Origin: a virus
Reading direction: 5' to 3' (one strand)
IMG/VR virus record: IMGVR_UViG_3300029258_002856
DNA: 64,000 nucleotides
Shown here one piece after another: positions 23,826 through 37,924 of this stretch. Position 1 is the first letter of the stretch, and every line of letters starts with the position of its first letter. Below the pieces are notes generated by a model, which worked only from the letters and a program-made list of their open reading frames with translations, did no database searches and was not told where the DNA came from. The position numbers and the translations under genes are program-made.

Positions 23826-24887
23826 ATGACGATGGCCCCCACGATTGTAAATCAGGAGCGCCAGCAGGAACTGCTGTCAGACGGCACGCTCAAGTACGTC
23901 ATCCTCTCCACGGTCACGGACCCTGGAGAACTCCCGCACACGCACCTCTTTGTGTTTCAAATCGTGGATACCGTCGATCCCAAGGACGACATCTTCCTTC
24001 GGGTGGGGAACCCTTACGACCTTGAAAATGTAAACGTCAGCCGCATCGACGCCGTGGACGACGGGGAGCAGTACTACCTGGCCTCGGAGTTACGTAAAGA
24101 GTACAAGACTCTCGACACTGCTCTTGACGCCAAGGATGCCATCAATTCGCGCATCAATGATGCCGTCAAGGCGTGGTACTCCTACATCACGGAGTTCGAA
24201 GGGTCGGACACCGAGGACTATCCGACTACGGACCCCTCGTACGAGCAAGCACTCAAGGATGCCTATGCGACTGCAAAAGAGAACCGGAAGGCGGCGGAGG
24301 ACGCAGTTACCGCGTCGGACACGGCGCTCACGCTGGCGCAGTCGGAAGCGTCTCTGGCTCAGCAGAAAGTCCAAATCTATGCGAATGAAGTCGAGTTCTG
24401 TGAGACTGCCCGGGTTACATACTGGGTCACCTACTACGGCGCTGTCGGCTCCTACACCCCCGAGGTCACTAACCTACGCAACAACTACCAGTCCTACATC
24501 GAGGATATCGTTGCGGCGTATGATGCAGCAAATACGAACCCATATCCGAATCCTCCCACGGCTCCAGGGTGGAACCCCGTCTGGACGGCTCTGAACACCC
24601 ACTTCTCCGACCCCTCGGACTTCACTACTGGCCCGCAGGCCACGTTCCAGGAGAAGGAGAACTTCGGCAGCCTCCTGGACAGTGCGTTTGCATCCTTCTG
24701 TTCCAACGCGGCGGCCAATCATGCAGCGGCCCTCAGCGAGAAGCAGCTCAAGGACCAAGACGTCGCGGATGCTGTCACAGCAAAAGAAGAGGCAGAGGCC
24801 GCGTTGGTTGCGGCCCAGCAGGCAGAGGACGAAGCCTTAGCAGCAGTGCTTGCTGTCTGCCCGGACTTCGACCCACTGTCTGTCTAG
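23826..24887 (+). CDS. Hypothetical protein, paralog family A domain plus Ala-rich coiled coil
   Basis: LFVFQI..VGNPYDLE..DGEQYY..KEYKTLD.A..R..FEG, then heptad-like Ala-rich helices. Confidence 0.7.
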   Translation: MTMAPTIVNQERQQELLSDGTLKYVILSTVTDPGELPHTHLFVFQIVDTVDPKDDIFLRVGNPYDLENVNVSRIDAVDDGEQYYLASELRKEYKTLDTALDAKDAINSRINDAVKAWYSYITEFEGSDTEDYPTTDPSYEQALKDAYATAKENRKAAEDAVTASDTALTLAQSEASLAQQKVQIYANEVEFCETARVTYWVTYYGAVGSYTPEVTNLRNNYQSYIEDIVAAYDAANTNPYPNPPTAPGWNPVWTALNTHFSDPSDFTTGPQATFQEKENFGSLLDSAFASFCSNAAANHAAALSEKQLKDQDVADAVTAKEEAEAALVAAQQAEDEALAAVLAVCPDFDPLSV

Positions 24888-24890
24888 CCT

Positions 24891-26228
24891 CTATCGGTGT
24901 AGGTACGGTACTTCCCTCCAGTGTTTGTAGAAGTCGCTGAAGCTCTGGACGGTTGCCGTCCAGGCTAGGGGGCGTCGTCCGCCCCAGTTGAAATGTAATT
25001 CGATGGCATCTCCGTAGCTAGGGACCATCGTCAGGATGCTGTAACTTGTTTTCACCCATCCGCATTGTTTGTACGGGCTGCGGTCGATGTGCGCGGCGCA
25101 GGCTAGAAGGGCTTTGCGCTTCTTCGTCATGCGCCCGCGCCACTCGGGCCAACTTCGGTCGTAGCCGTATTCCGAGAGGACGTGTTTCGCCTCTTTGAAA
25201 GACGAGAAAGCCACGTCGATGTTGTTGCTGTTGGCAGTGCGGTAACGCAGGCCGAACCGCAAGATGTTCTTGTGGGTACGCCAGTCGTAGTCGATGTAGA
25301 AGCTCCCCACGCAGATGTGGCGGTCGAATCGCTCGGATAGTTCTCCGCTGTTCGCTAGAAGATACCGAAGCTGTGCGTCATTGAAGGGGATGTGCACCTT
25401 AGAGAGTACCTCTTCCGCGGCCTCGTCTTCCGTTTGTGCGAATGCTCCTGCGCAGCGGGCTATCTGCCAGCGCTCGGCGTAACAGAGACATCCCGCGTGC
25501 ACCAGGCAAGTAGGACACACTTCGCGGCGAAAACGGTTAACACGGTTGCGTTCCACGGCAGCATCGGAGGTCCGGTGGGAGTTCTCTGCGACCACGGAGA
25601 AGTCGTGCGCATCCAACGGGCGTTTCAGTTTGGCGAACACCGTCTCCCGGTCCCACCCTTCAGGTTTCGTCAGCATGGGGCTGATGTATGTGAAGGGGCC
25701 GATCTTCGTCACCGAAGATTGGAGGACTTCTCCGTTGAGTTCGTCCACGTCTGCGCCGTCATAGTCCGGGGTCGAGTACCCATCGTGGAGATAACGTCGG
25801 ATAGCACAAAGGCGCGGCATGTCATAGGCCGGAAGCTCCGCGCAGCCGTTGCACCCGATGATGTATTTGTGAGGGAGAGGGCACTCTTCGTACACCTCGT
25901 AGGGGTGAAACTTTCTCGCGGAATCCCGATTGAGGATGTAGACGTACTCTCCCATGCGTGAAGTGTGTATGCGCGAGATAACGTCATCCCCGATATCTCC
26001 AGCGATTCGGATAACCGGATGCGGGAGACTCCCGCGGTGCACGTACATGATGCACGGATAGCCGAGTACGTCGTGGACCAATTGACTCTCGGACAGGAGT
26101 TTCAGATTCTCGGGGGTGACTATCTGTTGCGACGTGTCCAGGGTGGAGAACAGCAATTCCGGGTAATCGTCATCCACGCAGAACGTGAAGACCTCACGCA
26201 ATTTGTACGCTGGCAATCTGGCTGTCAT
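24891..26228 (-). CDS. Hypothetical Cys-cluster protein downstream of the RT
   Basis: 445 aa; start overlaps the RT stop by 35 nt; CNGC..C and CPTC..GC.C..C clusters. Confidence 0.7.
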   Translation of the reverse strand: MTARLPAYKLREVFTFCVDDDYPELLFSTLDTSQQIVTPENLKLLSESQLVHDVLGYPCIMYVHRGSLPHPVIRIAGDIGDDVISRIHTSRMGEYVYILNRDSARKFHPYEVYEECPLPHKYIIGCNGCAELPAYDMPRLCAIRRYLHDGYSTPDYDGADVDELNGEVLQSSVTKIGPFTYISPMLTKPEGWDRETVFAKLKRPLDAHDFSVVAENSHRTSDAAVERNRVNRFRREVCPTCLVHAGCLCYAERWQIARCAGAFAQTEDEAAEEVLSKVHIPFNDAQLRYLLANSGELSERFDRHICVGSFYIDYDWRTHKNILRFGLRYRTANSNNIDVAFSSFKEAKHVLSEYGYDRSWPEWRGRMTKKRKALLACAAHIDRSPYKQCGWVKTSYSILTMVPSYGDAIELHFNWGGRRPLAWTATVQSFSDFYKHWREVPYLHR

Positions 26229-27384
26229 GTTCCCACATTTTCATCGCAGCGTCGAAGTTCTCGCGGAGTCGCGCACCTCGCTCGGGGTTAACTTGCATGG
26301 CGTAGTTCACTTTACCGCGGAGCCAGTCTTGTAATTGCGCCGGAGACTCCTTCCCGGCCCGGAGGTACTGAGTATCGAAACCATGCGCCAGGCAGTTATA
26401 GGTCAGGGAGCGCAAGGAAATGTACTCTTCTCGGGGGATGTTGGGGTGCCGGTTAAATACGATGCCCAATAGTTGCTTTCGATAATAGCTGCTGGAGATT
26501 CGGGTTTTGCGTTTGTTTACGGCGTAACCGGCTCGGTGGCAGATGTTCATTAGCTTGGCGACGATTTTCCGCTTCTCGGTGAGCGGGAGGTTCTCCCCGC
26601 ACGTGAAGGCGAGGTCGTCGGCGTAGCGGGTGTAGGTCCAACGCCATTCGCCCGCGAGACCCATCTGGATGTTCAGCTCATCTAAGTAGTCGAGGATGGG
26701 ACGGTCGAGAATCCAATCGGCAATGAGGTTACAGATGGCACCGGACGCAGGACTCCCCTGTGGGACTCCAGAGTAGAACTGCTTCTCGTCTTCCCGCTGA
26801 TGCGTGGTTCCGTATCGTCGGTTGGGGATGTCGGACACCGTGAGGAGGTTCGCCATCAGGTCAGACACGAAATGGTTGTAGCCGATGACCTCGTTGAAGT
26901 AGCGACGAATCCAAGAGCGCCGCGTGCTGTGAAAGAAGTCTCGAAGGTCGAGGTTGATGTACGTGCCTTTGCGGGGGCACTTGTGCGTAGGTGCTGTTTC
27001 GCTGACGGGCAGTGCGTCGCAGATGGAGCACTGCGGGACGTGAGCACTGACGGCCATCCGGGTGGAAATACCTCGTCGGTACGCGGTAACGTGCTCGCCG
27101 AGGTCTCTCTGCAACGGCACCAGTATCTTGGTGTGGAACTGTCGCAGCATCACCTTCATGAGCGGGCTCGGGGCGTGGATTATGCGCTTCTGCCCATTCT
27201 TCTTTGGGATGTAGTAGACGTGATATTGCTCCTTTTTCTGCGTAATGACGTACCACAGTACCTTGTTGCGAAATCCCAGGAGGAAGGCGAGGCCGCAATC
27301 GTCGAAGATTGCGTGCGCTCGCTCTCCCATCACATCGGGGACCTGGATTTCATCTACGGAAGTGAACCTGAAGCCGTAGGACAT
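26194..27384 (-). CDS. Reverse transcriptase, retron-like
   Basis: YIPKKNG.KRIIHAP..LMK, YINLDLRDFFHS, GVPQGSPASGAICN, YTRYADDLAF, GYAVN.RKT; region X variant MAVSAH, region Y variant QLLGIVFN; retron-like thumb LRGKVNY..VNP..G. Confidence 0.92.
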   Translation of the reverse strand: MSYGFRFTSVDEIQVPDVMGERAHAIFDDCGLAFLLGFRNKVLWYVITQKKEQYHVYYIPKKNGQKRIIHAPSPLMKVMLRQFHTKILVPLQRDLGEHVTAYRRGISTRMAVSAHVPQCSICDALPVSETAPTHKCPRKGTYINLDLRDFFHSTRRSWIRRYFNEVIGYNHFVSDLMANLLTVSDIPNRRYGTTHQREDEKQFYSGVPQGSPASGAICNLIADWILDRPILDYLDELNIQMGLAGEWRWTYTRYADDLAFTCGENLPLTEKRKIVAKLMNICHRAGYAVNKRKTRISSSYYRKQLLGIVFNRHPNIPREEYISLRSLTYNCLAHGFDTQYLRAGKESPAQLQDWLRGKVNYAMQVNPERGARLRENFDAAMKMWEHDSQIASVQIA

Positions 27385-27388
27385 GAGG

Positions 27389-28021
27389 CTATCCTCCTAC
27401 TTCCTCGGAAGACTGTTTCTCGCTGCGGGCGTTGTAGCTGTCGTACGGCAATTCCGTATCGACGTTCTTCAGGCAGAGCTGTGTCCCCGGACGACACTTG
27501 CCTTCGTAGTAGTCCATGATGTTGGTGCACACCGCACAAAAGAGTCCGATTTCTCGAGTCGGAGTGAACAACGTCACCTGGGGCATGTTGATCTCTTTGT
27601 CGATATTGCGAAATACTGCCTGAGACTGCACATACCCGACAAACGAATTGATGGCTTCACGGTCCTTGTAGCGCCCTCGAACGTGCGTGGGCACGACAAT
27701 CATCCACTCGTTGAGGTCTGTCAGCCATGAGATGTATCCTCCTGCCGAGACGACGATGTACTCGAAGAGGTTGTCGTTCCGGAGCTGACTGATGGTTCGG
27801 GTTTTGTCCACACGCACGTTTTTGATGGCCTGGCGCAAATCCTCGTCCAGCGGCAGCATGAAGAAGTAGCGAAACATCTTCTGTGCCAATGGGAGGTCGT
27901 TACGTTTCATCAGGTAGAAGCGGTCGTAGGGGAAGTAGAGATAGGGGGTCTTCGTCCCCAACTCTTCATTCCCCTGAACCTGCCGCTGGCAAAGTTTTAC
28001 GCAGTAAATTGTTTTGGGCAT
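27389..28021 (-). CDS. Hypothetical protein with C-terminal Cys cluster, upstream of the RT
   Basis: 210 aa; CAVC-x10-C-x6-C; 4 nt gap to the RT and 2 nt gap to the vWA gene. Confidence 0.7.
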   Translation of the reverse strand: MPKTIYCVKLCQRQVQGNEELGTKTPYLYFPYDRFYLMKRNDLPLAQKMFRYFFMLPLDEDLRQAIKNVRVDKTRTISQLRNDNLFEYIVVSAGGYISWLTDLNEWMIVVPTHVRGRYKDREAINSFVGYVQSQAVFRNIDKEINMPQVTLFTPTREIGLFCAVCTNIMDYYEGKCRPGTQLCLKNVDTELPYDSYNARSEKQSSEEVGG

Positions 28022-28023
28022 TG

Positions 28024-29602
28024 TTATCCCTTGATACGGAGTACCCGCTGCATCTCGGGGGTCTCAGCGCCGTTGCTGGTGAGCGCCCAGATGAGCGGTA
28101 CGGGTGGTTCGTAGTCCGGAATCGGACCGGCGGGGCTCTGGACTGGCGCGTAACCGTCGGTGAGCATCACCACCAGGTCAGCGTTGGGAATGCCCTCCGT
28201 GATGCGCTCAGCTCCCTCGAGCCAGTCTGAGTCTTCGTCTTTGCCCATGACGCGCTTGAGCGCGGGCTTGAAACACGTACCGCCATAGCCGTAGCGATAC
28301 GCTCGATTGCTGGCGAACTCCTCGCTGTCCTCGTCCAAGAGTGCTTCGTGCTGGATGGCGTGGTCGAAGGCGATGAACTGTACGGACACTCCCTGCTCCG
28401 CGTCGAGGATGCCTTTGATTTCCGACATGAATTTGGTGTACTCGTCGTCGGAAACCGAGCCGGAGGTGTCCACGCAGACTGCGATGTGGAAGGTGAAGTC
28501 TCGCTGGTAGTACGGGAAGGGCTCGATACCCTCTCCAGCGAGGTGCATCATGCCGGGGTTTGGCATCACGACGCTCTCCTGGAGCTTCGCGGAAATAGCG
28601 GATTTCATCATGCCGCGGAAGACAATCTCCCACGGGATGGTCGGCTCTTCGAGCAGCCGGTCGATGAGGTGCTGGAGGTGCCCGGGAACGGTGCCCCGGC
28701 TCTTGGCGGTCTGCTCTACTGCGGACTCCACGATGCGCTTCCCGTCGCGCTTGGCTTGCTCGATGGCACGCTCACGCTCCGAGTCGGTCATCTCATCGAA
28801 CTCCTGATTCCAATCCAGGTGTCGCGGGAGCTGCTTGTCGAGCAGGTCACGGAACCAGGACGGTACCCGGGGGTCCTGGGACATGATGTCTCCCGGTCCG
28901 AGCTTGGGGTCAGGGCGATTCTGTTGTTGCTCGTCGCCTTCCCCCTCTCCCTCCCCCGGCTGCGGTTGCTGGCTACCGCCTCCGCCACCTCCACCTCCGC
29001 CACCGCCGCCGGATTGCTGCTGCTCTTCTTCTCCGTCCCCGCCTCCACCTTGGGCGGCTCCCTCGAAGGTACCCTCGCTGTACTCCCCGACGTCGAAGCC
29101 GTTCTTCTGGAGGTCCTCGAGGAGCAACTTGAGGTAGGTCTCCATGTACTGGTCACGGGGGTAGTTGCGACTCTCCGGCCAGCACAGCTTCTTCTCCAGG
29201 TCGGCGAAGTGCGCGGGGTTCTCGGCCAGGAACGGTCGAACCGCTACGTCATTCGCAGCCATGTCCATGGCGATGTTGAATACCGGTTGGAAGCGCCGGA
29301 ACTTTTCGGGGGAGTCGAAGTTGATGCGGTAGCGCATGATGCGTGGGATGTGCTCCAGCACCAGGTGCGCTGCCTCGTGAACCACGACCAGAATCTGCGA
29401 CTCCCGAGGTAGAGAGCCGAACCAATCTGGGTCGTAGATGAAAAGGTACTTCCCTTGTGGCGTGATGGAGACCGCAGCGGTCTGTAGGCCGCGTGCTACG
29501 ATTCGGGAGCACCCGTTGAGAATCCGGCCGTAGAAGTTATTTCCGCCGCGTGGACTGCATGCCCATTGCAGCACTTCGCTCAGTGCATTTCCCTCACCCA
29601 TA
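28024..29602 (-). CDS. Metallopeptidase-like (HExxH) plus vWA domain protein (DUF2201-like)
   Basis: VVVHEAAH zincin motif; vWA MIDAS VCVDTSGSV and VMLTDG; Gly/Gln/Glu-rich linker; start reassigned to ATG 29602 (SD AGGAGG). Confidence 0.85.
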
Positions 29603-29607
29603 ATGTG

Positions 29608-29639
29608 TTGCCTCCTTTTTGACGTCTGTCTATAATTCA
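29608..29639 (+). promoter_or_regulatory. Sigma70-type promoter for the 29673-31460 gene pair
   Basis: TTGCCT (29608-29613), 17 bp spacer, TATAAT (29631-29636) followed by TCA. Confidence 0.55.
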
Positions 29640-29672
29640 GTGGGCGTAAACAACAACCCAACTGAGGTAGTG

Positions 29673-30680: not shown

Positions 30681-31460
30681 ATGTACGAGAAATTGGCAGC
30701 ACTCACAGAGAAGATTCCCACGCTCTGTGCCTATCACGAGAAGTCCGCGAGCGAGGAGGAGTACGCTCGGGAGCTGTTGCGCGGTCCCGATGATGACACA
30801 GCAGCGGGTCTCTTCCTGGCGGTGCGCACTCTCTACGGGTTGGACGTTCTTTCTTGGGAGCCAGAGACGCTGTGGGTGACCATGGAGAAGGACGGCTTCG
30901 ACTTACCGGAAGAGGCACGCAACAAGATACAAGCCGCCATCACGCTCATCGTGAACCCCGCTTTCTACTGGGACAGCATCGCGTTTCAACGTACGGTGCA
31001 GGCTTTCAACGATATTCCTTTCGACCCAGAGGCACTTCAGGAACCAGCAGTCGCGCATATGGATTGGGCAGTCTACGAGGCAAAGACGATTCGAGGACTC
31101 GACCCGGACGACCCTGGTAAAGCGCCAGACTTTGACGAGGACGTTCAAATGTTCGTGGCGGTCGTCCTCAAGCGCGCGGGCTTCATCTACCCACCTAAGT
31201 CACTGCGGTTCTCGGAGAGCGCGCTCGATAAACTTTACGCCGTAGACCCCACCGGACTCAAAAAAGAGGTCGCAGCCGCCTGGAAAGCTGTCGACCAGAA
31301 CCGTCTCCAAAACACTGAGTTTTCAGAGAATGCTCTGGGCGTACAGCTTGCCAAGCTGGCTGCTTGTTACCTCTACACCAAGGACCGTGCCGAGAAGCTA
31401 GCCGAAGAGCTAGTCGGGTTCCAGGTGACTAGCGCCTCTTCTTCTTCCGGGATTTCTTGA
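30681..31460 (+). CDS. Hypothetical K-x-A-rich protein
   Basis: Abuts the previous stop; KLAA, KSAS, KLAA, KLAE. Confidence 0.7.
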   Translation: MYEKLAALTEKIPTLCAYHEKSASEEEYARELLRGPDDDTAAGLFLAVRTLYGLDVLSWEPETLWVTMEKDGFDLPEEARNKIQAAITLIVNPAFYWDSIAFQRTVQAFNDIPFDPEALQEPAVAHMDWAVYEAKTIRGLDPDDPGKAPDFDEDVQMFVAVVLKRAGFIYPPKSLRFSESALDKLYAVDPTGLKKEVAAAWKAVDQNRLQNTEFSENALGVQLAKLAACYLYTKDRAEKLAEELVGFQVTSASSSSGIS

Positions 31461-32694
31461 AGTCGTCGTCCACCGCACGGTGAGACTTATCCAACTTCTT
31501 GTGTGCCGCGACCCACTCATCGAAGGTGTACATCTTCCGCATCAGCGTCTTCAGGTACTCCTCCGCGTTGTTGGATTGTGCCACGCGCTTCATGCTGTTC
31601 ATGATTGCGCCGACGTTCTCCGGCGGCTGGGTATCGATGAACCGTACGAAGTTCTCCGCTACCTCGTCCACCTCGAACTGCTTAGCGAAGAGAATCTCCA
31701 GGACGTTCATGTTGAGGTCCATGAGCGCTTCCTGGTTGGTGTTCTTGACGAGCGTCGCCACCTTCTTGCGCACCTTCCCGTAGTTCCGCAGTACGTCCTC
31801 GGGACTGATGGCCGTCGAGCGGTCACGCAAGAATGCGCTGAGCTGGTTCGTTGCGGTTTCACCGATGGACGCGGCGAAGCGCACGGAGGCGAACGTTCCT
31901 CCGAGGTTCATACCGCTGTTCTCCATCAGGTAAGCGTCGAGCGAAATCGTCTGGATGGTCGCGGGGCACGTGTACTGCTTGTTCTGTTCCCGCGCCTTCT
32001 TGTCGTCAATCATCTCCGCCTTGTTCTCGAAGAACTCCAGGATGTCGGGGTGGCACGGCTTCCGACCGCCCAGCGCATTGATGTCGACCTCCGTCGAGTG
32101 GAAGAGGTCGGTGGCTGCGTGGTCCAGAAAGGACCGGGTGGTCGGTACGGCGAAGATGAACTTCAGCCGTCGCCGCAGCGCCGCGTTGTTCTCGATCTGC
32201 GTGACCGTGTACTGTGCGGTGTTGGGGTTCATCATGGCCACCACCAGGGCGCTCTCCGGCAGGAAGTAGTTGAACATCTGCCGGTCCTCAATCATGCTGA
32301 AGAACATCGAGATGGCGTGCTGCTGGCCCTGGTTGATTTCGTCGAACATGACGATGGCCTTCTCCCCCTCGGCGGGGAAGACCTCAGGCAGCTTGATTTT
32401 GAAGAAGTCGACTCCCTTGGCGTCCTTGACGCTGGGGATGCCCGTCCCCATCAGACCGAAGTGCGCGGTCCGGATGTCACACACCCGGGCCTCTTCTTCC
32501 TCAGCCAGTTGGTGCACGATCTGGGACTTGCCCATCCCGGCCTCTCCCACGATACACCAGACACCGCGAAAGGCCTTGTGCCGCATCGAGAAGCGGAGTT
32601 GTTCCTTGATGTCGGCGATGCTCCCCGAGGGGATATCGTACAACTCGGTGTACGACATCTGTGCCTTTTCTTTTTCGTTGGTTCCAGTTGACAT
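31429..32694 (-). CDS. MoxR-type AAA+ ATPase
   Basis: Walker A GEAGMGKS, Walker B VMFDEINQ, sensor AMMNP, arginine finger AALRRR; SD AGGAGG. Confidence 0.85.
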   Translation of the reverse strand: MSTGTNEKEKAQMSYTELYDIPSGSIADIKEQLRFSMRHKAFRGVWCIVGEAGMGKSQIVHQLAEEEEARVCDIRTAHFGLMGTGIPSVKDAKGVDFFKIKLPEVFPAEGEKAIVMFDEINQGQQHAISMFFSMIEDRQMFNYFLPESALVVAMMNPNTAQYTVTQIENNAALRRRLKFIFAVPTTRSFLDHAATDLFHSTEVDINALGGRKPCHPDILEFFENKAEMIDDKKAREQNKQYTCPATIQTISLDAYLMENSGMNLGGTFASVRFAASIGETATNQLSAFLRDRSTAISPEDVLRNYGKVRKKVATLVKNTNQEALMDLNMNVLEILFAKQFEVDEVAENFVRFIDTQPPENVGAIMNSMKRVAQSNNAEEYLKTLMRKMYTFDEWVAAHKKLDKSHRAVDDDFKKSRKKKRR

Positions 32695-32727: not shown

Positions 32728-34338
32728 ATGCCGCGACTAAGCGCATGTTTGAGCGACGTTGCTGAGGCGTGGATACACCTCAACGGCCAACCCTTTCGTC
32801 TTGACGACTGGCCGATGCACAAAGCGTTCTACGACGGACGCTATCCCCGTACCCTGATGAAGACGAGCCGCCAGGTCGGGAAGTCCACGACCCTGGCAAA
32901 CTTCAGCATTACTGAGTGCAGTCTTATACCGCATTTTTCAACAATGTTCGTCACGCCTACACGGGAGCAAACAGTTCGTTTTTCCAACTCTAGAGTGCAG
33001 AAGACGATGCGGTATTCGCCGCGCATCAACAAATTCCTGCACCCTGACCTAGCTGACCGCGTATTTCACAAGCAGTTCACCAACGGTTCGGAGATGCTCT
33101 TCACCTACGCGTTGGACGACCCGGACCGGCTGCGTGGGCCTTCGACTGACCGCAATTTATATGATGAGGTTCAGGACCTTCTTTACGACCCGGTAGTGCT
33201 CGTCGGGAATGAAACACTGTCCGAGTCAGATTATCAATACGAAACTTACGCCGGGACTCCCAAGACGATGGAGAACACCATCCAGTACCTCTGGGAGTTG
33301 TCCACTCAGACAGAGTGGGTGATGAAGTGTGATTCCTGCGGTTCGTACCAGTATATCGATACGGAGAAGGCTCTCGGAAAGACTGGTCCTATCTGCCTCA
33401 AATGCAGCGCGTATCTCAATCCGCGCAACGGGCAGTGGATTGACATGAATCCCCCGGACGATGACGTACCGGACGAAGACGTGCTGCTCAAGGGCTTTCA
33501 CATCAGTCAGCTCATCATGCCGTCCAACGTGCCGCTCTCCATGAAGCATGACGCCAAATTGGAAGAGCGCGCCCTCAAACGTTGGAATCGTATTCTCCGC
33601 AAATACGAAGAGACTCCCAATCCCGCTACCTTCCGAAACGAGGTCCTGGGTGTCTCGGACGCCATTGGTACCCGGCTCATCAGCCTGGAGGAACTGCAAG
33701 CGTTATGCACCGGCAAAGAGCTTGTGCAATTTCCCAAAGACTCGGACTTCCTCGGCTACTCGATGCATGTCGCAGGCGTTGACTGGTCAGGGGGAGGGAC
33801 TACTGGCATCTCGCGCTCCGTCCTCTGGATTTGGGGCTTTCGGCCCGCAGACCAGAAGATGGTGTGCCGCTACTACAAGGTCTATCCTGGGACCAACCCC
33901 GTGCATGCCGTGGAAGAGATAGCGACCATCTGTAGCGGCTACCAAGTAGCTATGGTTGCTGGGGATGCGGGCGAGGGCGCACTCGCAAACGATTTACTCC
34001 GTAAAAGCCTCGGCCATCATCGAGTGACCCAGGTGCAATACGGGTCCCAATCTCGGGCGATGAAGTGGAACGGTCAGGACCGCTACAACGCTGACCGTAC
34101 CACGCTCATCGACAACTACTTCATGTTACTAAAAAAAGGAGCGGCCGAGTTAGGACCGCTCCATCAGATGCAAACCGCGATAGATGACATCCTCAATGAA
34201 TACGAGGAGGTCACCCACACGGGGAAGAAAGTATGGCGGCATTCGCCACAGAAACCTGACGACTGTTTGCACGCCGGTCTCTTCGGTTGGGTCGCGCTGA
34301 AGATTAAACAAAACGACATGAAGTTCTATCAGGAGTAG
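32728..34338 (+). CDS. terL: Terminase large subunit (GpA-like)
   Basis: KTSRQVGKST Walker A, LRGPS..RNLYDEVQD Walker B, CDSC/CLKC Zn, nuclease acidic residues GVDWSG, VAGDAG, DDCLHA. Confidence 0.85.
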   Translation: MPRLSACLSDVAEAWIHLNGQPFRLDDWPMHKAFYDGRYPRTLMKTSRQVGKSTTLANFSITECSLIPHFSTMFVTPTREQTVRFSNSRVQKTMRYSPRINKFLHPDLADRVFHKQFTNGSEMLFTYALDDPDRLRGPSTDRNLYDEVQDLLYDPVVLVGNETLSESDYQYETYAGTPKTMENTIQYLWELSTQTEWVMKCDSCGSYQYIDTEKALGKTGPICLKCSAYLNPRNGQWIDMNPPDDDVPDEDVLLKGFHISQLIMPSNVPLSMKHDAKLEERALKRWNRILRKYEETPNPATFRNEVLGVSDAIGTRLISLEELQALCTGKELVQFPKDSDFLGYSMHVAGVDWSGGGTTGISRSVLWIWGFRPADQKMVCRYYKVYPGTNPVHAVEEIATICSGYQVAMVAGDAGEGALANDLLRKSLGHHRVTQVQYGSQSRAMKWNGQDRYNADRTTLIDNYFMLLKKGAAELGPLHQMQTAIDDILNEYEEVTHTGKKVWRHSPQKPDDCLHAGLFGWVALKIKQNDMKFYQE

Positions 34339-34346
34339 TCTTCCTT

Positions 34347-34858
34347 GAGCGGTCTCTTTTGCGGACACCGCGCGAAGGAGCTGTTCACCGCTCCGGAGCT
34401 GTCCGCAAAACAACGCAGACAGTGAACGGAGGCATGTCCAGCGTCGAAGAGCTGCTCCGACAGCTCTGGTTCCTGGACATGGTGACGTGAGCCCATTCAG
34501 GGCTTTTCATGTGCGTTACGCGCATGGTTTTCCGGAATCGCCGGATCGAAGACTACAACTTCGTGGTCGCGTTGCTTGGTGGACTTCCTTCCTCAGACCT
34601 GGAGGAGGAAGAGAAGTCGCTACCGCAGGCGGCGAGTACTGCTCAGCAAGCCGAGGAGTACCGCTCAGGAACGTAGTCAGGATGTTGCATCCTTTTGTCA
34701 GCAAATGACTCCAACGCTGGTAGTTCGATTCGACAATGTGAGTGGAAATGACCTTCCACTCAGATTGGAAAATCGAATGGCGAAGCTGCCCCCGAGTTGG
34801 TTCTGTCAGATTACGGTTACCAGCTTAATCAAAGAACCACTCGGGTTAGGACCTGTTC
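34347..34858 (+). ncRNA. Candidate large structured non-coding RNA (~510 nt) of unknown class
   Basis: About 12 hairpins in the terL-polA gap (details in findings), a closing stem 34347-34355/34849-34858, a possible pseudoknot, and G-U pairs that are consistent on the plus strand. Confidence 0.7.
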
Positions 34859-37800
34859 TTATACCGTCACGAGCTGCTGGAATTCGGAGCGGATATCCTG
34901 CTCGATGTGTTCGTCTTCGTCACCCAGACGGTACTCTGGGTTCTCGGAAAGGTAGGACTCGACAGACGCTAGCTCCCCGTAGCTCGGGCCGACTTCCACG
35001 TCCCATTTGAAGGGGACCGGCATCCAGGGGTACTGCTCTCCCACACGCTTTACGCCGTATTCCTCGATGAAGTCCGGAACCTGTGAGATGTACTGCTTGG
35101 GGATTTCGAAGACCACAGAGTCGTGAACGGTGATGAGCATGCGTCCGTGGAAGTCTTGTTCCAGCGGGTCCATCAATTCGCAGAGTACCCCAAGAACCAC
35201 ATCAGATGACGTGCTCTGAATCTTGAAGTTGACGGCCTGGCGTTCGGCCTTGTTACGGAGGTGGAAGATGAGCCCCTTCAGGTTGAAGCGGCGGCGGCGA
35301 CCCAGAAAAGTCTCTACCGTCTCGAGGTGGCGTACCTGGTCCTTGGTGAGCCGGATGTAGTGCTTGATAGTAGGGAACATCTTGAAGAGGGTGTCGATGA
35401 TGACGTCTGCTTGCTCCTGGGGGATGCCCACGATGTAAGACACCTTTCGGGGACTCGCCCCGTAGAGGATGCCGAACACCACACGCTTGATGGTCTTGCG
35501 CAGTTTGCCCAGGCGCTTTCCGTACTCCGGGTCGGGTCCTGGGTTTTCCGGGGTGCCCTTGTAGTAGTCGCGTTTCTGGAAGTCCTCGTAGGACCATGCG
35601 TGCTCGTCGTCGATGCCGACAGTTTCCATCACAGCTTTCCGCATTATGGGTTCCACATCCTGCAACACCGTCGCAGGGTTGTAGACCATCGAAGCGAAGA
35701 AGCTGTGGGGGTCCATTCCGTCGTTCAGCGCCTTGATGAGATTGGGGTCCCGACTGTAGGCAGCGTAGATTCTAACCTCAGCGGCCTTGGCGTCCGCGTT
35801 GACGATGACCTCGGTTTCCGGGTCCGTAGGAATGAACATTTTCTTGAGGTTGTGCTTGCCGATGCGCACTGGGACATTCTGCATGTTCTCGTCGGAGCTG
35901 CTGAGACGGCCAGTCGAGGTCCCGGCAATGTGGAATGAGGTGTGCATCCGTCCGTCTTCCATGCTCAGAGTCTGGACGTTGGCGACGAACGTGTTTCGGG
36001 CTTTGCTAGTCGCTCGGAATTTGAGAACAGCTTTGGCAAAGGGGCATTCGAATTGCGTGACGAGGCTCCGCAAGAACGCTTGGTTCGTGGACTCAAGGCC
36101 GGTGCTGGTGTAGATAGGTTCCACCCTACCGCGGTAACAAATTGCTTCTTGGGTTTCCGGGTGCAGGTAGCCAGACGCGAACAGTATCTTGCGGAGGTGG
36201 GCGGTGCTCCCCGGATTAAAGGGGTCCTTGAGCACCTTCGGTGGAATCATCTCATTGAGAATCTGCCTGGACTGCCGCAAAGACTGGTCCATGTCGATGA
36301 TGAGCTCGTCAATATAGTCGTGGTCTGCGCGGATGCCCGTGGCTTCCATCCTGGCCAAGGCACGCGTCGCTGGAATCCCGCGCTTAATCATCAGCTGTCG
36401 AAGTGGATTCGGGTCTTTCACACCTGGACGAGCGATGGCACGCATGTACTTGTTCTTGGTCTTCCACAGTTCGTTACGCTTCTTGTAGAGGCGCTTGTTT
36501 TCCTCCGCCATGCGTCGCATCTGGATGATGGCAATCTGCCGGGTTACGTCGCCGTCGATAGCACCGTACTCGTTCAGCTGTTTGAGCGGTACGTATAGAA
36601 AACCATCGTCCTCTGCCAACTTCTTGGCGGCACCCCGCAGTTTGGATTTGGGAATGGTAGGTTTGACACCATCCGCTTCGTTTTTGAGCTGTTGCACCTG
36701 GGTCGGGGCTTCGAGCATGTTCAGAATGTCGTGGAGTTGGTCCTCGTATCCAGCGTACTTCGGGAGCATCAGCTTGGTGACATCCTTGAGGCTGTAGTAG
36801 CCCTTCTTATCTTCTTCAAGGAGGTGCTCACCTATCATCGTGTCCCAAGAAATGCGACGAATGTAGAAACCTTTACGCTCGAAGACTTTCAGGTCGTACT
36901 TGATGTTGTGGCCTACTTTGGGCTTGGAGCATGTTACCAGCTCGGCAATATACGGGCGCACGGCTTCCGGCTTCCAAGGAGTTTCCGGATGTTCATAGGG
37001 AATGGAGCACGCCTGCCCTTCTTCCCAGGAAGCCACGACGCTCAAGAGCTTGAGCTTTTGTCTATGGGGGTGCAGAGTGTTCGTTTCAGTGTCCAGAGAC
37101 AGCAGCACATGTCGAGGGTCTTTGCCTGGAGGTGCGTAGTTGATGATGAACTCGACGAGTTCCCGCACTTCTTTGGGCGATGAGGGAAAGATGTAGCTCT
37201 CAACTATCTGCTCCATGGGGACCACGGTCTGGACTATCTCTCCTTTCGAGAGTGCGTACGTTCCGTGGATGAAGTTTTCGACGTGGCGCTCCAGTACATT
37301 GACGTACCCGGACTTGGCCGCGAGCTGACGTTTCGATAATGACGGATAGATAAAAACGCGACGTCCTTGAACTTGCACCTCCAAGAATTTACCCTGCACT
37401 TCTTTGTACTTTCCGTACTTGACTCCGAGGGAGCGTAGGACAGCGGGGCCGAGGGCCAATACGGCGATGGGCCGGTGCTGGGGAGCGTGCTTCAGTAGTT
37501 CTCGGTGGAAGAGCGGTGAGCAGCAATCGCCCATTCGCTTGTTGGGTTTATCGATAGCGCAGCGGATGGCATAGGTATAACGCCCTTCTAGCCCCGCAAA
37601 CATCCGGTTGTGCTCTTTAAAGCGCGATACGGTTTGCCGGATGATGCGTTCGGTATCGAGAGACCATCCCTGGTGGTTATCCAGGTCTCCGGATGGCCCC
37701 ATGACGTGGGGAGACTCCGCGATGATGTAGTAGTCGGCGGGTGTATGGTCCGCACCGATGCCTTCGGTGTAATGTTTCTTGCGGTAAAGGGGGCACTCAG

Positions 37801-37924
37801 AACAGAGTGGGCCTTTCCAGGCCCTGGCACCGCAAAGATTGCAGTCTATGTAGTCGCTACCAGTCGACGTTGCTTCCGAAGTCTTCGTCGATGTCTGGTT
37901 CGTCGAGTGAGGGTTCTTCGGCAT
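34859..37924 (-). CDS. polA: Family A DNA polymerase with N-terminal uracil-DNA-glycosylase-like (family 4, Fe-S) domain and 3'-5' exonuclease
   Basis: Exo LSLDTET, GHNIKYD, YGAIDGD; pol TSTGRLSSS..NMQN, NADAKAAEVR, RKTIKRVVFGILYG, ITVHDS; N-terminal C..C..CP, IIAESP, AIRC, ALG; SD GGAGG before ATG 37924. Confidence 0.92.
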   Translation of the reverse strand: MPKNPHSTNQTSTKTSEATSTGSDYIDCNLCGARAWKGPLCSECPLYRKKHYTEGIGADHTPADYYIIAESPHVMGPSGDLDNHQGWSLDTERIIRQTVSRFKEHNRMFAGLEGRYTYAIRCAIDKPNKRMGDCCSPLFHRELLKHAPQHRPIAVLALGPAVLRSLGVKYGKYKEVQGKFLEVQVQGRRVFIYPSLSKRQLAAKSGYVNVLERHVENFIHGTYALSKGEIVQTVVPMEQIVESYIFPSSPKEVRELVEFIINYAPPGKDPRHVLLSLDTETNTLHPHRQKLKLLSVVASWEEGQACSIPYEHPETPWKPEAVRPYIAELVTCSKPKVGHNIKYDLKVFERKGFYIRRISWDTMIGEHLLEEDKKGYYSLKDVTKLMLPKYAGYEDQLHDILNMLEAPTQVQQLKNEADGVKPTIPKSKLRGAAKKLAEDDGFLYVPLKQLNEYGAIDGDVTRQIAIIQMRRMAEENKRLYKKRNELWKTKNKYMRAIARPGVKDPNPLRQLMIKRGIPATRALARMEATGIRADHDYIDELIIDMDQSLRQSRQILNEMIPPKVLKDPFNPGSTAHLRKILFASGYLHPETQEAICYRGRVEPIYTSTGLESTNQAFLRSLVTQFECPFAKAVLKFRATSKARNTFVANVQTLSMEDGRMHTSFHIAGTSTGRLSSSDENMQNVPVRIGKHNLKKMFIPTDPETEVIVNADAKAAEVRIYAAYSRDPNLIKALNDGMDPHSFFASMVYNPATVLQDVEPIMRKAVMETVGIDDEHAWSYEDFQKRDYYKGTPENPGPDPEYGKRLGKLRKTIKRVVFGILYGASPRKVSYIVGIPQEQADVIIDTLFKMFPTIKHYIRLTKDQVRHLETVETFLGRRRRFNLKGLIFHLRNKAERQAVNFKIQSTSSDVVLGVLCELMDPLEQDFHGRMLITVHDSVVFEIPKQYISQVPDFIEEYGVKRVGEQYPWMPVPFKWDVEVGPSYGELASVESYLSENPEYRLGDEDEHIEQDIRSEFQQLVTV

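Follow-up and report, generated by a model that had tools for sequence, protein, structure and literature searches.

A retron-type reverse transcriptase cassette in a lineage of large uncultured phages, with candidate template RNAs encoded elsewhere in the genome

Retrons are known as bacterial antiphage systems made up of one reverse transcriptase (RT), one adjacent noncoding RNA (ncRNA) and an effector. A stretch of 64,000 nucleotides from the virus record IMGVR_UViG_3300029258_002856 (hereafter the window) raises the question how an RT of the retron type could operate in a phage when no such RNA lies next to its gene. In the window the RT gene stands between two genes for proteins with cysteine clusters, of 210 and 445 amino acids (aa), which we call p210 and p445. 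The window is taken from an IMG/VR virus record of 179 kb which is complete according to CheckV, and the RT is thus phage-encoded, as the initial annotation had stated. We are highly confident that p210, the RT and p445 constitute a genuine cassette.

Four tightly spaced open reading frames (ORFs) on the minus strand make up positions 24891–29661 in the ORF listing of the window: the three cassette genes and, upstream of them, the gene of a DUF2201 protein. The junctions are gaps of 2 nt (DUF2201/p210) and 4 nt (p210/RT) and an overlap of 35 nt (RT/p445), which assumes the first ATG of p445; later in-frame starts are present. The operon described at the outset, that is, a von Willebrand factor A (vWA) protein with an HExxH motif, a protein of 210 aa, the RT and a protein of 445 aa, is confirmed with all of its genes and junctions. 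Such an arrangement goes far beyond what chance would give, since about 48 independent phage loci share the gene order.

By its sequence the RT belongs to the retron clade, a class assignment which rests on profile scores and not on a tree. PQG is found at residue 208 of the protein and YADD at residue 254. All of the top 25 models from PADLOC are of retron RT types (E ~1e-50), and among the NCBIfam models retron St85/Ec67 reach 122–130 bits (St85 130) versus 47 bits for group II and 27 bits for Drt2. When the profile of the 44-member RT family was compared with the PDB, the top twelve matches were solved retron RTs (58–96 bits), whereas group II RTs scored at most 39 bits and the defence-associated RTs (DRTs) DRT1/DRT2 at most 24 bits; no RT of a diversity-generating retroelement (DGR) was among the matches. 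With the single sequence as well as with the profile the best solved structures are Ec67, Ec86, Kva2, Ec78 and Ec83. PADLOC, NCBIfam and the PDB profile matches thus bear out the earlier call of a retron-type RT with PQG and YADD motifs, and of the classes scored by profile the retrons come first and group II and DRT enzymes lower.

The alignment of the 44 family members shows that PQG, YxDD (Y254xDD) and many further positions are invariant, and as far as can be read from the sequence the RT is intact as a catalyst and is subject to purifying selection. Retrons such as Ec86/Eco1 and Ec67/Eco2 have been classified by Mestre et al. (2020; PMC7736814). Their RTs contain region X, NAXXH, between RT2 and RT3, with H as the most conserved residue, and region Y, VTG, in RT7, which steers the RT to its msr and in which G is most conserved (PMC7736814). 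In the phage family the consensus of region X is DAVxQH; H115 is invariant, another residue stands in place of the N, and the spacing exceeds that of NAXXH by one residue. Region Y reads LLG instead of VTG in 44/44 members, with L306 and G307 invariant, and only the G is retained. Directly after the region-X histidine the family has an invariant insertion, C119-x2-C122...H134-x-C136, which is probably a zinc knuckle. In a collection of 50,697 phage records the protein-level matches to the RT have at most 25% identity, and no similarity to the operon DNA was found in these records.

Homologues of the RT form more than 120 protein clusters with 38–61% identity, on contigs of up to 190 kb. Their contexts were taken from ENA, JGI, Logan and NCBI together with 53 IMG/VR loci; a scan of IMG/VR with a single protein gave nothing, and the alignment-based scan gave the loci. 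In about 48 loci the genes follow each other as PolA, large terminase (TerL), AAA, 259 aa, 353 aa, DUF2201, ~210 aa, RT, ~445 aa, ~300 aa, 123 aa and, further on, RuvC and ribonucleotide reductase (RNR). Across these loci the identity of the RT decreases from 53 to 28% as that of TerL decreases from 73 to 42%. Since the two fall together, vertical descent is indicated. The cassette is ancestral to a lineage of uncultured phages of ~170–195 kb found in sediment and water; its genes are inherited or lost together. An entire lineage of large phages has long carried the retron-clade RT and passed it on vertically. In the literature we found no description of this cassette nor of the p210 or p445 families; with the neighbours of the RT kept in the syntenic loci, the earlier suggestion of an undescribed conserved module stands. 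One RT homologue (P0015, locus L009, IMGVR_UViG_3300014914_000004, 78,677 bp) is labelled by NCBI as a metagenome-assembled genome of Archaeoglobales; this is probably a mis-binned phage contig because the full phage synteny is found on it.

Which genes form the functional unit? It had been proposed that the RT works with a MoxR AAA/vWA pair, so that the RT, the DUF2201/vWA metallopeptidase and the MoxR-like AAA ATPase would be one machine. Such a pair is indeed present beside the cassette. As in MoxR AAA+/vWA pairs, an AAA_5 ATPase gene and the DUF2201 gene both adjoin it, and the DUF2201 protein has the Pfam domains DUF2201_N and DUF2201/VWA, an HEAAH motif and a DTSGS motif resembling a metal ion-dependent adhesion site. 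Also, the DUF2201-p210-RT-p445 string is tight, with only the 2-nt gap at its first junction, and is kept in all loci with an RT. A second scan was anchored on TerL and hence was blind to the RT. Among 42 loci with enough upstream sequence, tblastn detected the RT in 35, and one more (L222) has a divergent RT, which gives 36/42. Truly without RT are L203, L212 (= L214), L217 (= L218) and L221, and no RT was found anywhere in four such records. In L203 exactly p210-RT-p445 are missing and DUF2201 directly adjoins the next conserved gene; the slot after DUF2201 is occupied by two unrelated ORFs in both L212 and L217. The slot ORFs (L212:3152-5154 and L217:3809-5379) code for 383–392 aa and 140–185 aa, match no Pfam family and look like alternative cargo at the same site.

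The DUF2201 and AAA genes are retained in every relative without RT, whereas p210 and p445, found on either side of the RT in every locus read, are missing along with it. Because these relatives lose exactly p210-RT-p445 and keep DUF2201/AAA, the unit is the three-gene cassette and not the vWA/MoxR pair. The proposed functional tie of the RT to this pair is thus not supported; unlike parts of a MoxR machine, the AAA_5 and DUF2201 genes persist without the RT cassette and hence are neighbours. In addition, the families phrog_1314 and phrog_1297 belong to a library built from sequenced phages, and that phage collection has only the distant RT matches (at most 25%). We therefore give very little credence to a single machine.

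The same relatives bear on the idea that the cassette is essential for replication or packaging of the genome, for example in priming or in the maintenance of ends. The cassette is embedded among the core genes TerL, PolA, RuvC and RNR and is inherited vertically, as would suit such a role. However, at least four related phages cleanly lack it or have something else in its place, and these keep all neighbouring core genes. This clean loss argues against an essential role in replication, which we consider hardly credible.

The two partner proteins define new protein families tied to an RT, whatever RNA the RT may use. In p210 (24 relatives aligned) C162, C165, C176 and C183 are invariant and an N-terminal FPFDRxYL motif is conserved; the C-terminal CxxC...C...C site probably binds zinc. 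The p445 protein has two invariant clusters of four cysteines each, C116/126/129/141 and C238/241/247/259. Its homologues amount to 93 representatives among 1.8 billion sequences, and p445 lies directly downstream of the RT in every context read; the most distant homologue likewise follows an RT. Searches with p210 and p445 against Pfam, PADLOC, PHROGs and NCBIfam gave no family and no known effector. The AlphaFold (AF2) model of p445 has a predicted local distance difference test score (pLDDT) of 90.5 and a predicted template modelling score (pTM) of 0.80, and the AlphaFold model of p210 a pLDDT of 83 and a pTM of 0.80. No solved structure resembling either model was found, with best values for p445 of E 0.37 (Foldseek against the PDB) and Z 4.0 (VIA wide) and for p210 of E 0.033 (Foldseek) and Z 2.7 (VIA). 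For p210, the ESM Atlas held no usable match among look-alikes and a word-index search returned the self-match only.

We then consider where the RNA of this RT might be encoded. The 633 nt upstream of the RT are a protein gene, p210, which is conserved in 24 relatives, and the string has gaps of only 2 and 4 nt there. Rfam at its gathering threshold gave zero matches in the whole window. The absence of an adjacent msr-msd, noted from the outset, is therefore upheld: the upstream space is coding and no Rfam match lies in the window. This bears on a further explanation, namely that the phage carries an ordinary retron-type system for abortive infection or superinfection exclusion, with p210 and/or p445 as toxic effectors and with an ncRNA in cis which overlaps coding sequence near the RT. 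A retron-clade RT with co-inherited accessory genes is what is seen in tripartite retrons (PMC7736814), and in a few relatives the slot after DUF2201 is variable, as in hotspots of defence and counter-defence. But the space upstream is taken by a conserved gene with operon gaps of at most 4 nt, no PADLOC effector model matches p210 or p445, and neither the window nor the RNA arrays described below have an Rfam retron or msr match. Moreover, the divergence of the cassette keeps pace with that of TerL over deep distances, which is not typical of mobile defence cargo. An ordinary retron in cis thus seems to us quite improbable.

Instead, candidate RNAs are found at a distance. The genome contains at least six structured RNA modules in three loci, all outside the window and 42–75 kb from the RT (Table 1). 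The largest locus is part of a 460-nt stretch which folds into three modules, each with its own terminal stem (z -4.0). A module is closed by a terminal stem of 7–17 bp, and a G, often as GGA or GAGCC, comes right after the 5′ arm. A hairpin, H1, with the apex G-UAA-C or G-UUA-C (G-UWA-C) follows 13–26 nt past the 5′ arm. A second small hairpin with a UUCG-type loop usually comes next. A variable longer hairpin follows, and (C)AG immediately precedes the 3′ arm. When recurrent hairpin apexes were counted in an unbiased census, AGUAACU or CGUAACG came first in the genomes G000, G008 and G001, and clustered AGUUACU hairpins were seen in G006. Such G-UWA-C hairpins occur in 4–6 copies per genome versus about 0.5 in shuffled sequences. 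In 11 modules from four genomes, 5/7 pairs of the H1 stem have compensatory changes on both sides. Some technical points define these results: gap calling by ORF cover missed the arrays, as spurious ORFs overlap them, and the genome-wide signature a1|G...AG|a2 (a1 and a2 being the arms of the terminal stem) is near background when taken alone, so that only tandem matches are informative. Rfam searches of the arrays with E up to 10 or 1 returned only tRNAs and noise. The protein flanking one of the arrays is not conserved in five relatives. Modules at C1:22142-22515 and C1:13126-13822 of the genome are directly between or beside phage tRNA genes; with tRNAs as flanks, RNase P and RNase Z would release exact ends.

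Roughly 40 modules were found in all, and in the relatives they have a preferred place. The RT-anchored loci contain about 11 G-UWA-C hairpins per 180 kb, almost all of them in the gap between PolA and TerL. There are 1–8 modules per gap, downstream of PolA, about 7 kb from the RT and on the strand of the RT. When both strands were searched equally, closures with a1|G...AG|a2 numbered 29 in RT sense versus 2 in antisense. With no rule imposed on the junctions, G follows a1 in 17/31 closures, AG precedes a2 in 17/31, and the spacer has 13–26 nt in 21/31; the opposite strand shows no such pattern of G, AG and spacer. Gap lengths in the relatives vary between 0 and more than 3000 nt. Among the TerL-anchored loci a gap hairpin is present in 20/38 with RT versus 0/6 without RT (L222 counted as having an RT).

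The window's own PolA-TerL gap takes us back to the initial annotation, which had suggested an RNA supplied in trans (candidates 34347-34858 or 52801-52984) or embedded in coding sequence. The idea of an RNA in trans is partly supported: modules resembling retron ncRNA exist, and the copies of the relatives are syntenic with 34347-34858. In this genome, however, the window's gap holds only an atypical element and the canonical modules lie outside the window. On the plus strand of the gap there is one G-UUA-C hairpin (34508-34526) together with an atypical closure of 274 nt. The gap also contains a dozen perfect hairpins of 7–13 bp and is among the most structured stretches seen. In the candidate 52801-52984 the hairpin census showed no G-UWA-C hairpin, with no dedicated search beyond the census.

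We consider it quite possible, though somewhat short of probable, that the trans-encoded modules are the templates of the RT. In their layout the modules match the ncRNA of retrons point by point. Retron ncRNAs have paired terminal repeats, a conserved branching G, 1–3 msr hairpins and a long msd hairpin (PMC7736814); the candidate RNAs have paired ends, a G after the 5′ arm, 1–2 small hairpins and a longer hairpin. We suggest the following scheme. The RT would use no contiguous msr-msd and would reverse-transcribe small structured RNAs encoded elsewhere in the phage genome. The terminal stem would be the counterpart of retron a1/a2 and the G after the 5′ arm would take the position of the branching G. 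H1 and the second small hairpin could be msr-like and the variable longer hairpin msd-like, and the AG directly before the 3′ arm may be where a retron RT would begin copying. The output would then be a set of different complementary DNAs (cDNAs) resembling multicopy single-stranded DNA (msDNA); p210 and p445 could serve as nucleic-acid-binding or effector subunits.

Several observations weigh against this assignment of the modules. In the RT, LLG is found where the VTG of retrons reportedly directs the enzyme to the msr. The window's gap is without a canonical module on the RT-sense strand, and the genomes G002, G009 and G010 have an RT and few or no such hairpins. Within the clade which holds the RT-less phages the hairpin is present in 4/10 loci with RT versus 0/6 without, which is not significant, and the RT-less records represent only about four phages. 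The pairing is partly by construction, because hairpins and stems were what the search for modules looked for. A covariance model (R1) built from the 5′ domains of the modules of G000 and G006 recovers only those two genomes; as it finds nothing elsewhere, homology of the modules across the lineage rests on architecture and not on sequence. When IMG/VR was scanned for an exact pattern of H1 and the UUCG hairpin, multiple matches came only from the contig of G006, the rest being compatible with chance. Finally, the link between RT and RNA is one that we infer, and the sequencing runs with this phage, from sediment or seawater, are all DNA runs kept as contigs, with no RNA run listed.

Another explanation runs as follows. 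The cassette would be real but the RT would copy some other RNA, such as mRNA, tRNA or host RNA, or would, like AbiK and some DRTs, make DNA with no fixed template, and the modules would be unrelated small phage RNAs whose ends are defined by processing. The location of two arrays beside tRNAs fits such ends, and the conserved G and AG at the stem ends could equally be signals for RNA processing or cleavage. The distance of the arrays from the RT in this genome, the replaced VTG triplet, the genomes with an RT and hardly any module hairpins and the indirect nature of the connection all fit as well. On the other side, the RT scores as retron-type and not as Abi/DRT, and a dedicated structured ncRNA is what retron RTs work with; the layout of the modules is that of msr-msd, most relatives have them on the strand of the RT and no more than about 7 kb from it, and the gaps of the six RT-less loci have no module hairpin. 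On balance we regard unrelated modules as unlikely, though by no means far-fetched.

If the modules are templates, what would the phage gain? We speculate that the role is related to conflict, as in counter-defence decoys or the exclusion of rival phages, rather than to essential replication, because some lineages have lost or replaced the cassette. A more specific proposal is a phage-borne split retron, in which one RT and two zinc proteins serve several templates encoded in trans in arrays, some of them freed by tRNA processing. Several msDNA-like molecules would be made per infection and could act, for example, as decoys against DNA-sensing or nuclease defences of the host. We put this forward tentatively and hold it to be rather doubtful as a whole. 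If true, multiple unlinked templates and a pro-viral role would be seen for the first time in a retron-type system.

Comparison with known systems helps to place the cassette. With retrons it shares an RT which by profile scores is in the retron clade and retains the H of region X and the G of region Y, and accessory genes co-inherited with the RT. Unlike retrons, it is vertically inherited on large phages which look virulent, it has no ncRNA contiguous with the RT, and its candidate RNAs are multicopy, differ from each other and lie in arrays kilobases away, sometimes flanked by tRNAs. LLG in place of VTG, the zinc-knuckle insertion and accessory proteins which match no known retron effector are further differences. 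Lytic jumbo phages of Staphylococcus similarly have a retron-like RT in a large phage with its own multisubunit RNA polymerases and with no known effector or function. But that RT differs: it has 501 aa, an extra N-terminal domain and about 21% identity to the RT described here, a noncoding region of 1.2 kb directly upstream is the proposed ncRNA site, and no neighbours like p210 or p445 are reported. Phage DGRs also combine an RT with a small accessory protein, and their template RNA can act on distant targets (PMC8632793). Unlike DGRs, the RT here scores with the retrons and the candidate RNAs are modules closed by stems, not template repeats.

We see in this system retron chemistry under a new genetic architecture, with a phage as its new host. 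In the literature no description was found of a retron-type RT with unlinked multicopy candidate templates. Should the link between RT and modules be true, phages would have put retron chemistry to their own use, the rule that retron ncRNA is contiguous with the RT would be broken, and a natural multi-template RT system of interest for genome editing with retrons would be at hand. The modules represent a new family of structured RNAs in phages, with or without the link to the RT.

Table 1. Positions of the cassette, its neighbours and the RNA modules (window numbering unless marked as genome)
Feature	Position	Strand	Remarks
p445	24891-26228	-	445 aa
RT	26194-27384	-	396 aa; RVT_1 by Pfam
p210	27389-28021	-	210 aa
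DUF2201 protein	28024-29661	-	545 aa from TTG; likely real gene 28024-29601
MoxR-like AAA_5 ATPase (phrog_1297)	31429-32694	-	context gene; probable partner of the DUF2201/vWA protein; retained in RT-less relatives
TerL, GpA-type large terminase	32728-34338		
PolA-TerL intergenic gap	34339-34858	both	hairpin-dense; z -9.6 (+), -7.6 (-)
PolA	34859-37924		
Three modules	genome 132041-132464		after a 276-aa ORF
Two modules	genome 22142-22515		between tRNA-Gln and tRNA-Glu
One module	genome 13126-13350		beside tRNA-Lys

Of the genes in Table 1, the DUF2201 protein most likely starts at the ATG at 29601, which is preceded by a strong Shine–Dalgarno sequence, AAAGGAGG. A scan of the operon for sigma-70 promoters and terminators stayed below the level of shuffled sequences. 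A lone hairpin with a G-UAA-C apex is located at 24300-24316 of the window on the minus strand, within the coding sequence of a gene of 353 aa that lies just downstream of p445; a search for a closing stem gave none, and the hairpin is compatible with chance. In the RT-less genome G023 a tandem cluster (C1:33170-33530) was considered as a set of modules and rejected, as it consists of three near-identical direct repeats and not of diverged, stem-closed units. The repeats have 117–129 nt each and contain a GUCGUUUAACGAC hairpin, and they may be coding, an origin or RNA. Among the relatives, one PolA carries an intein (Intein_splicing, L002:1-352) and one class II RNR has a LAGLIDADG insertion (L006:15116-18718).

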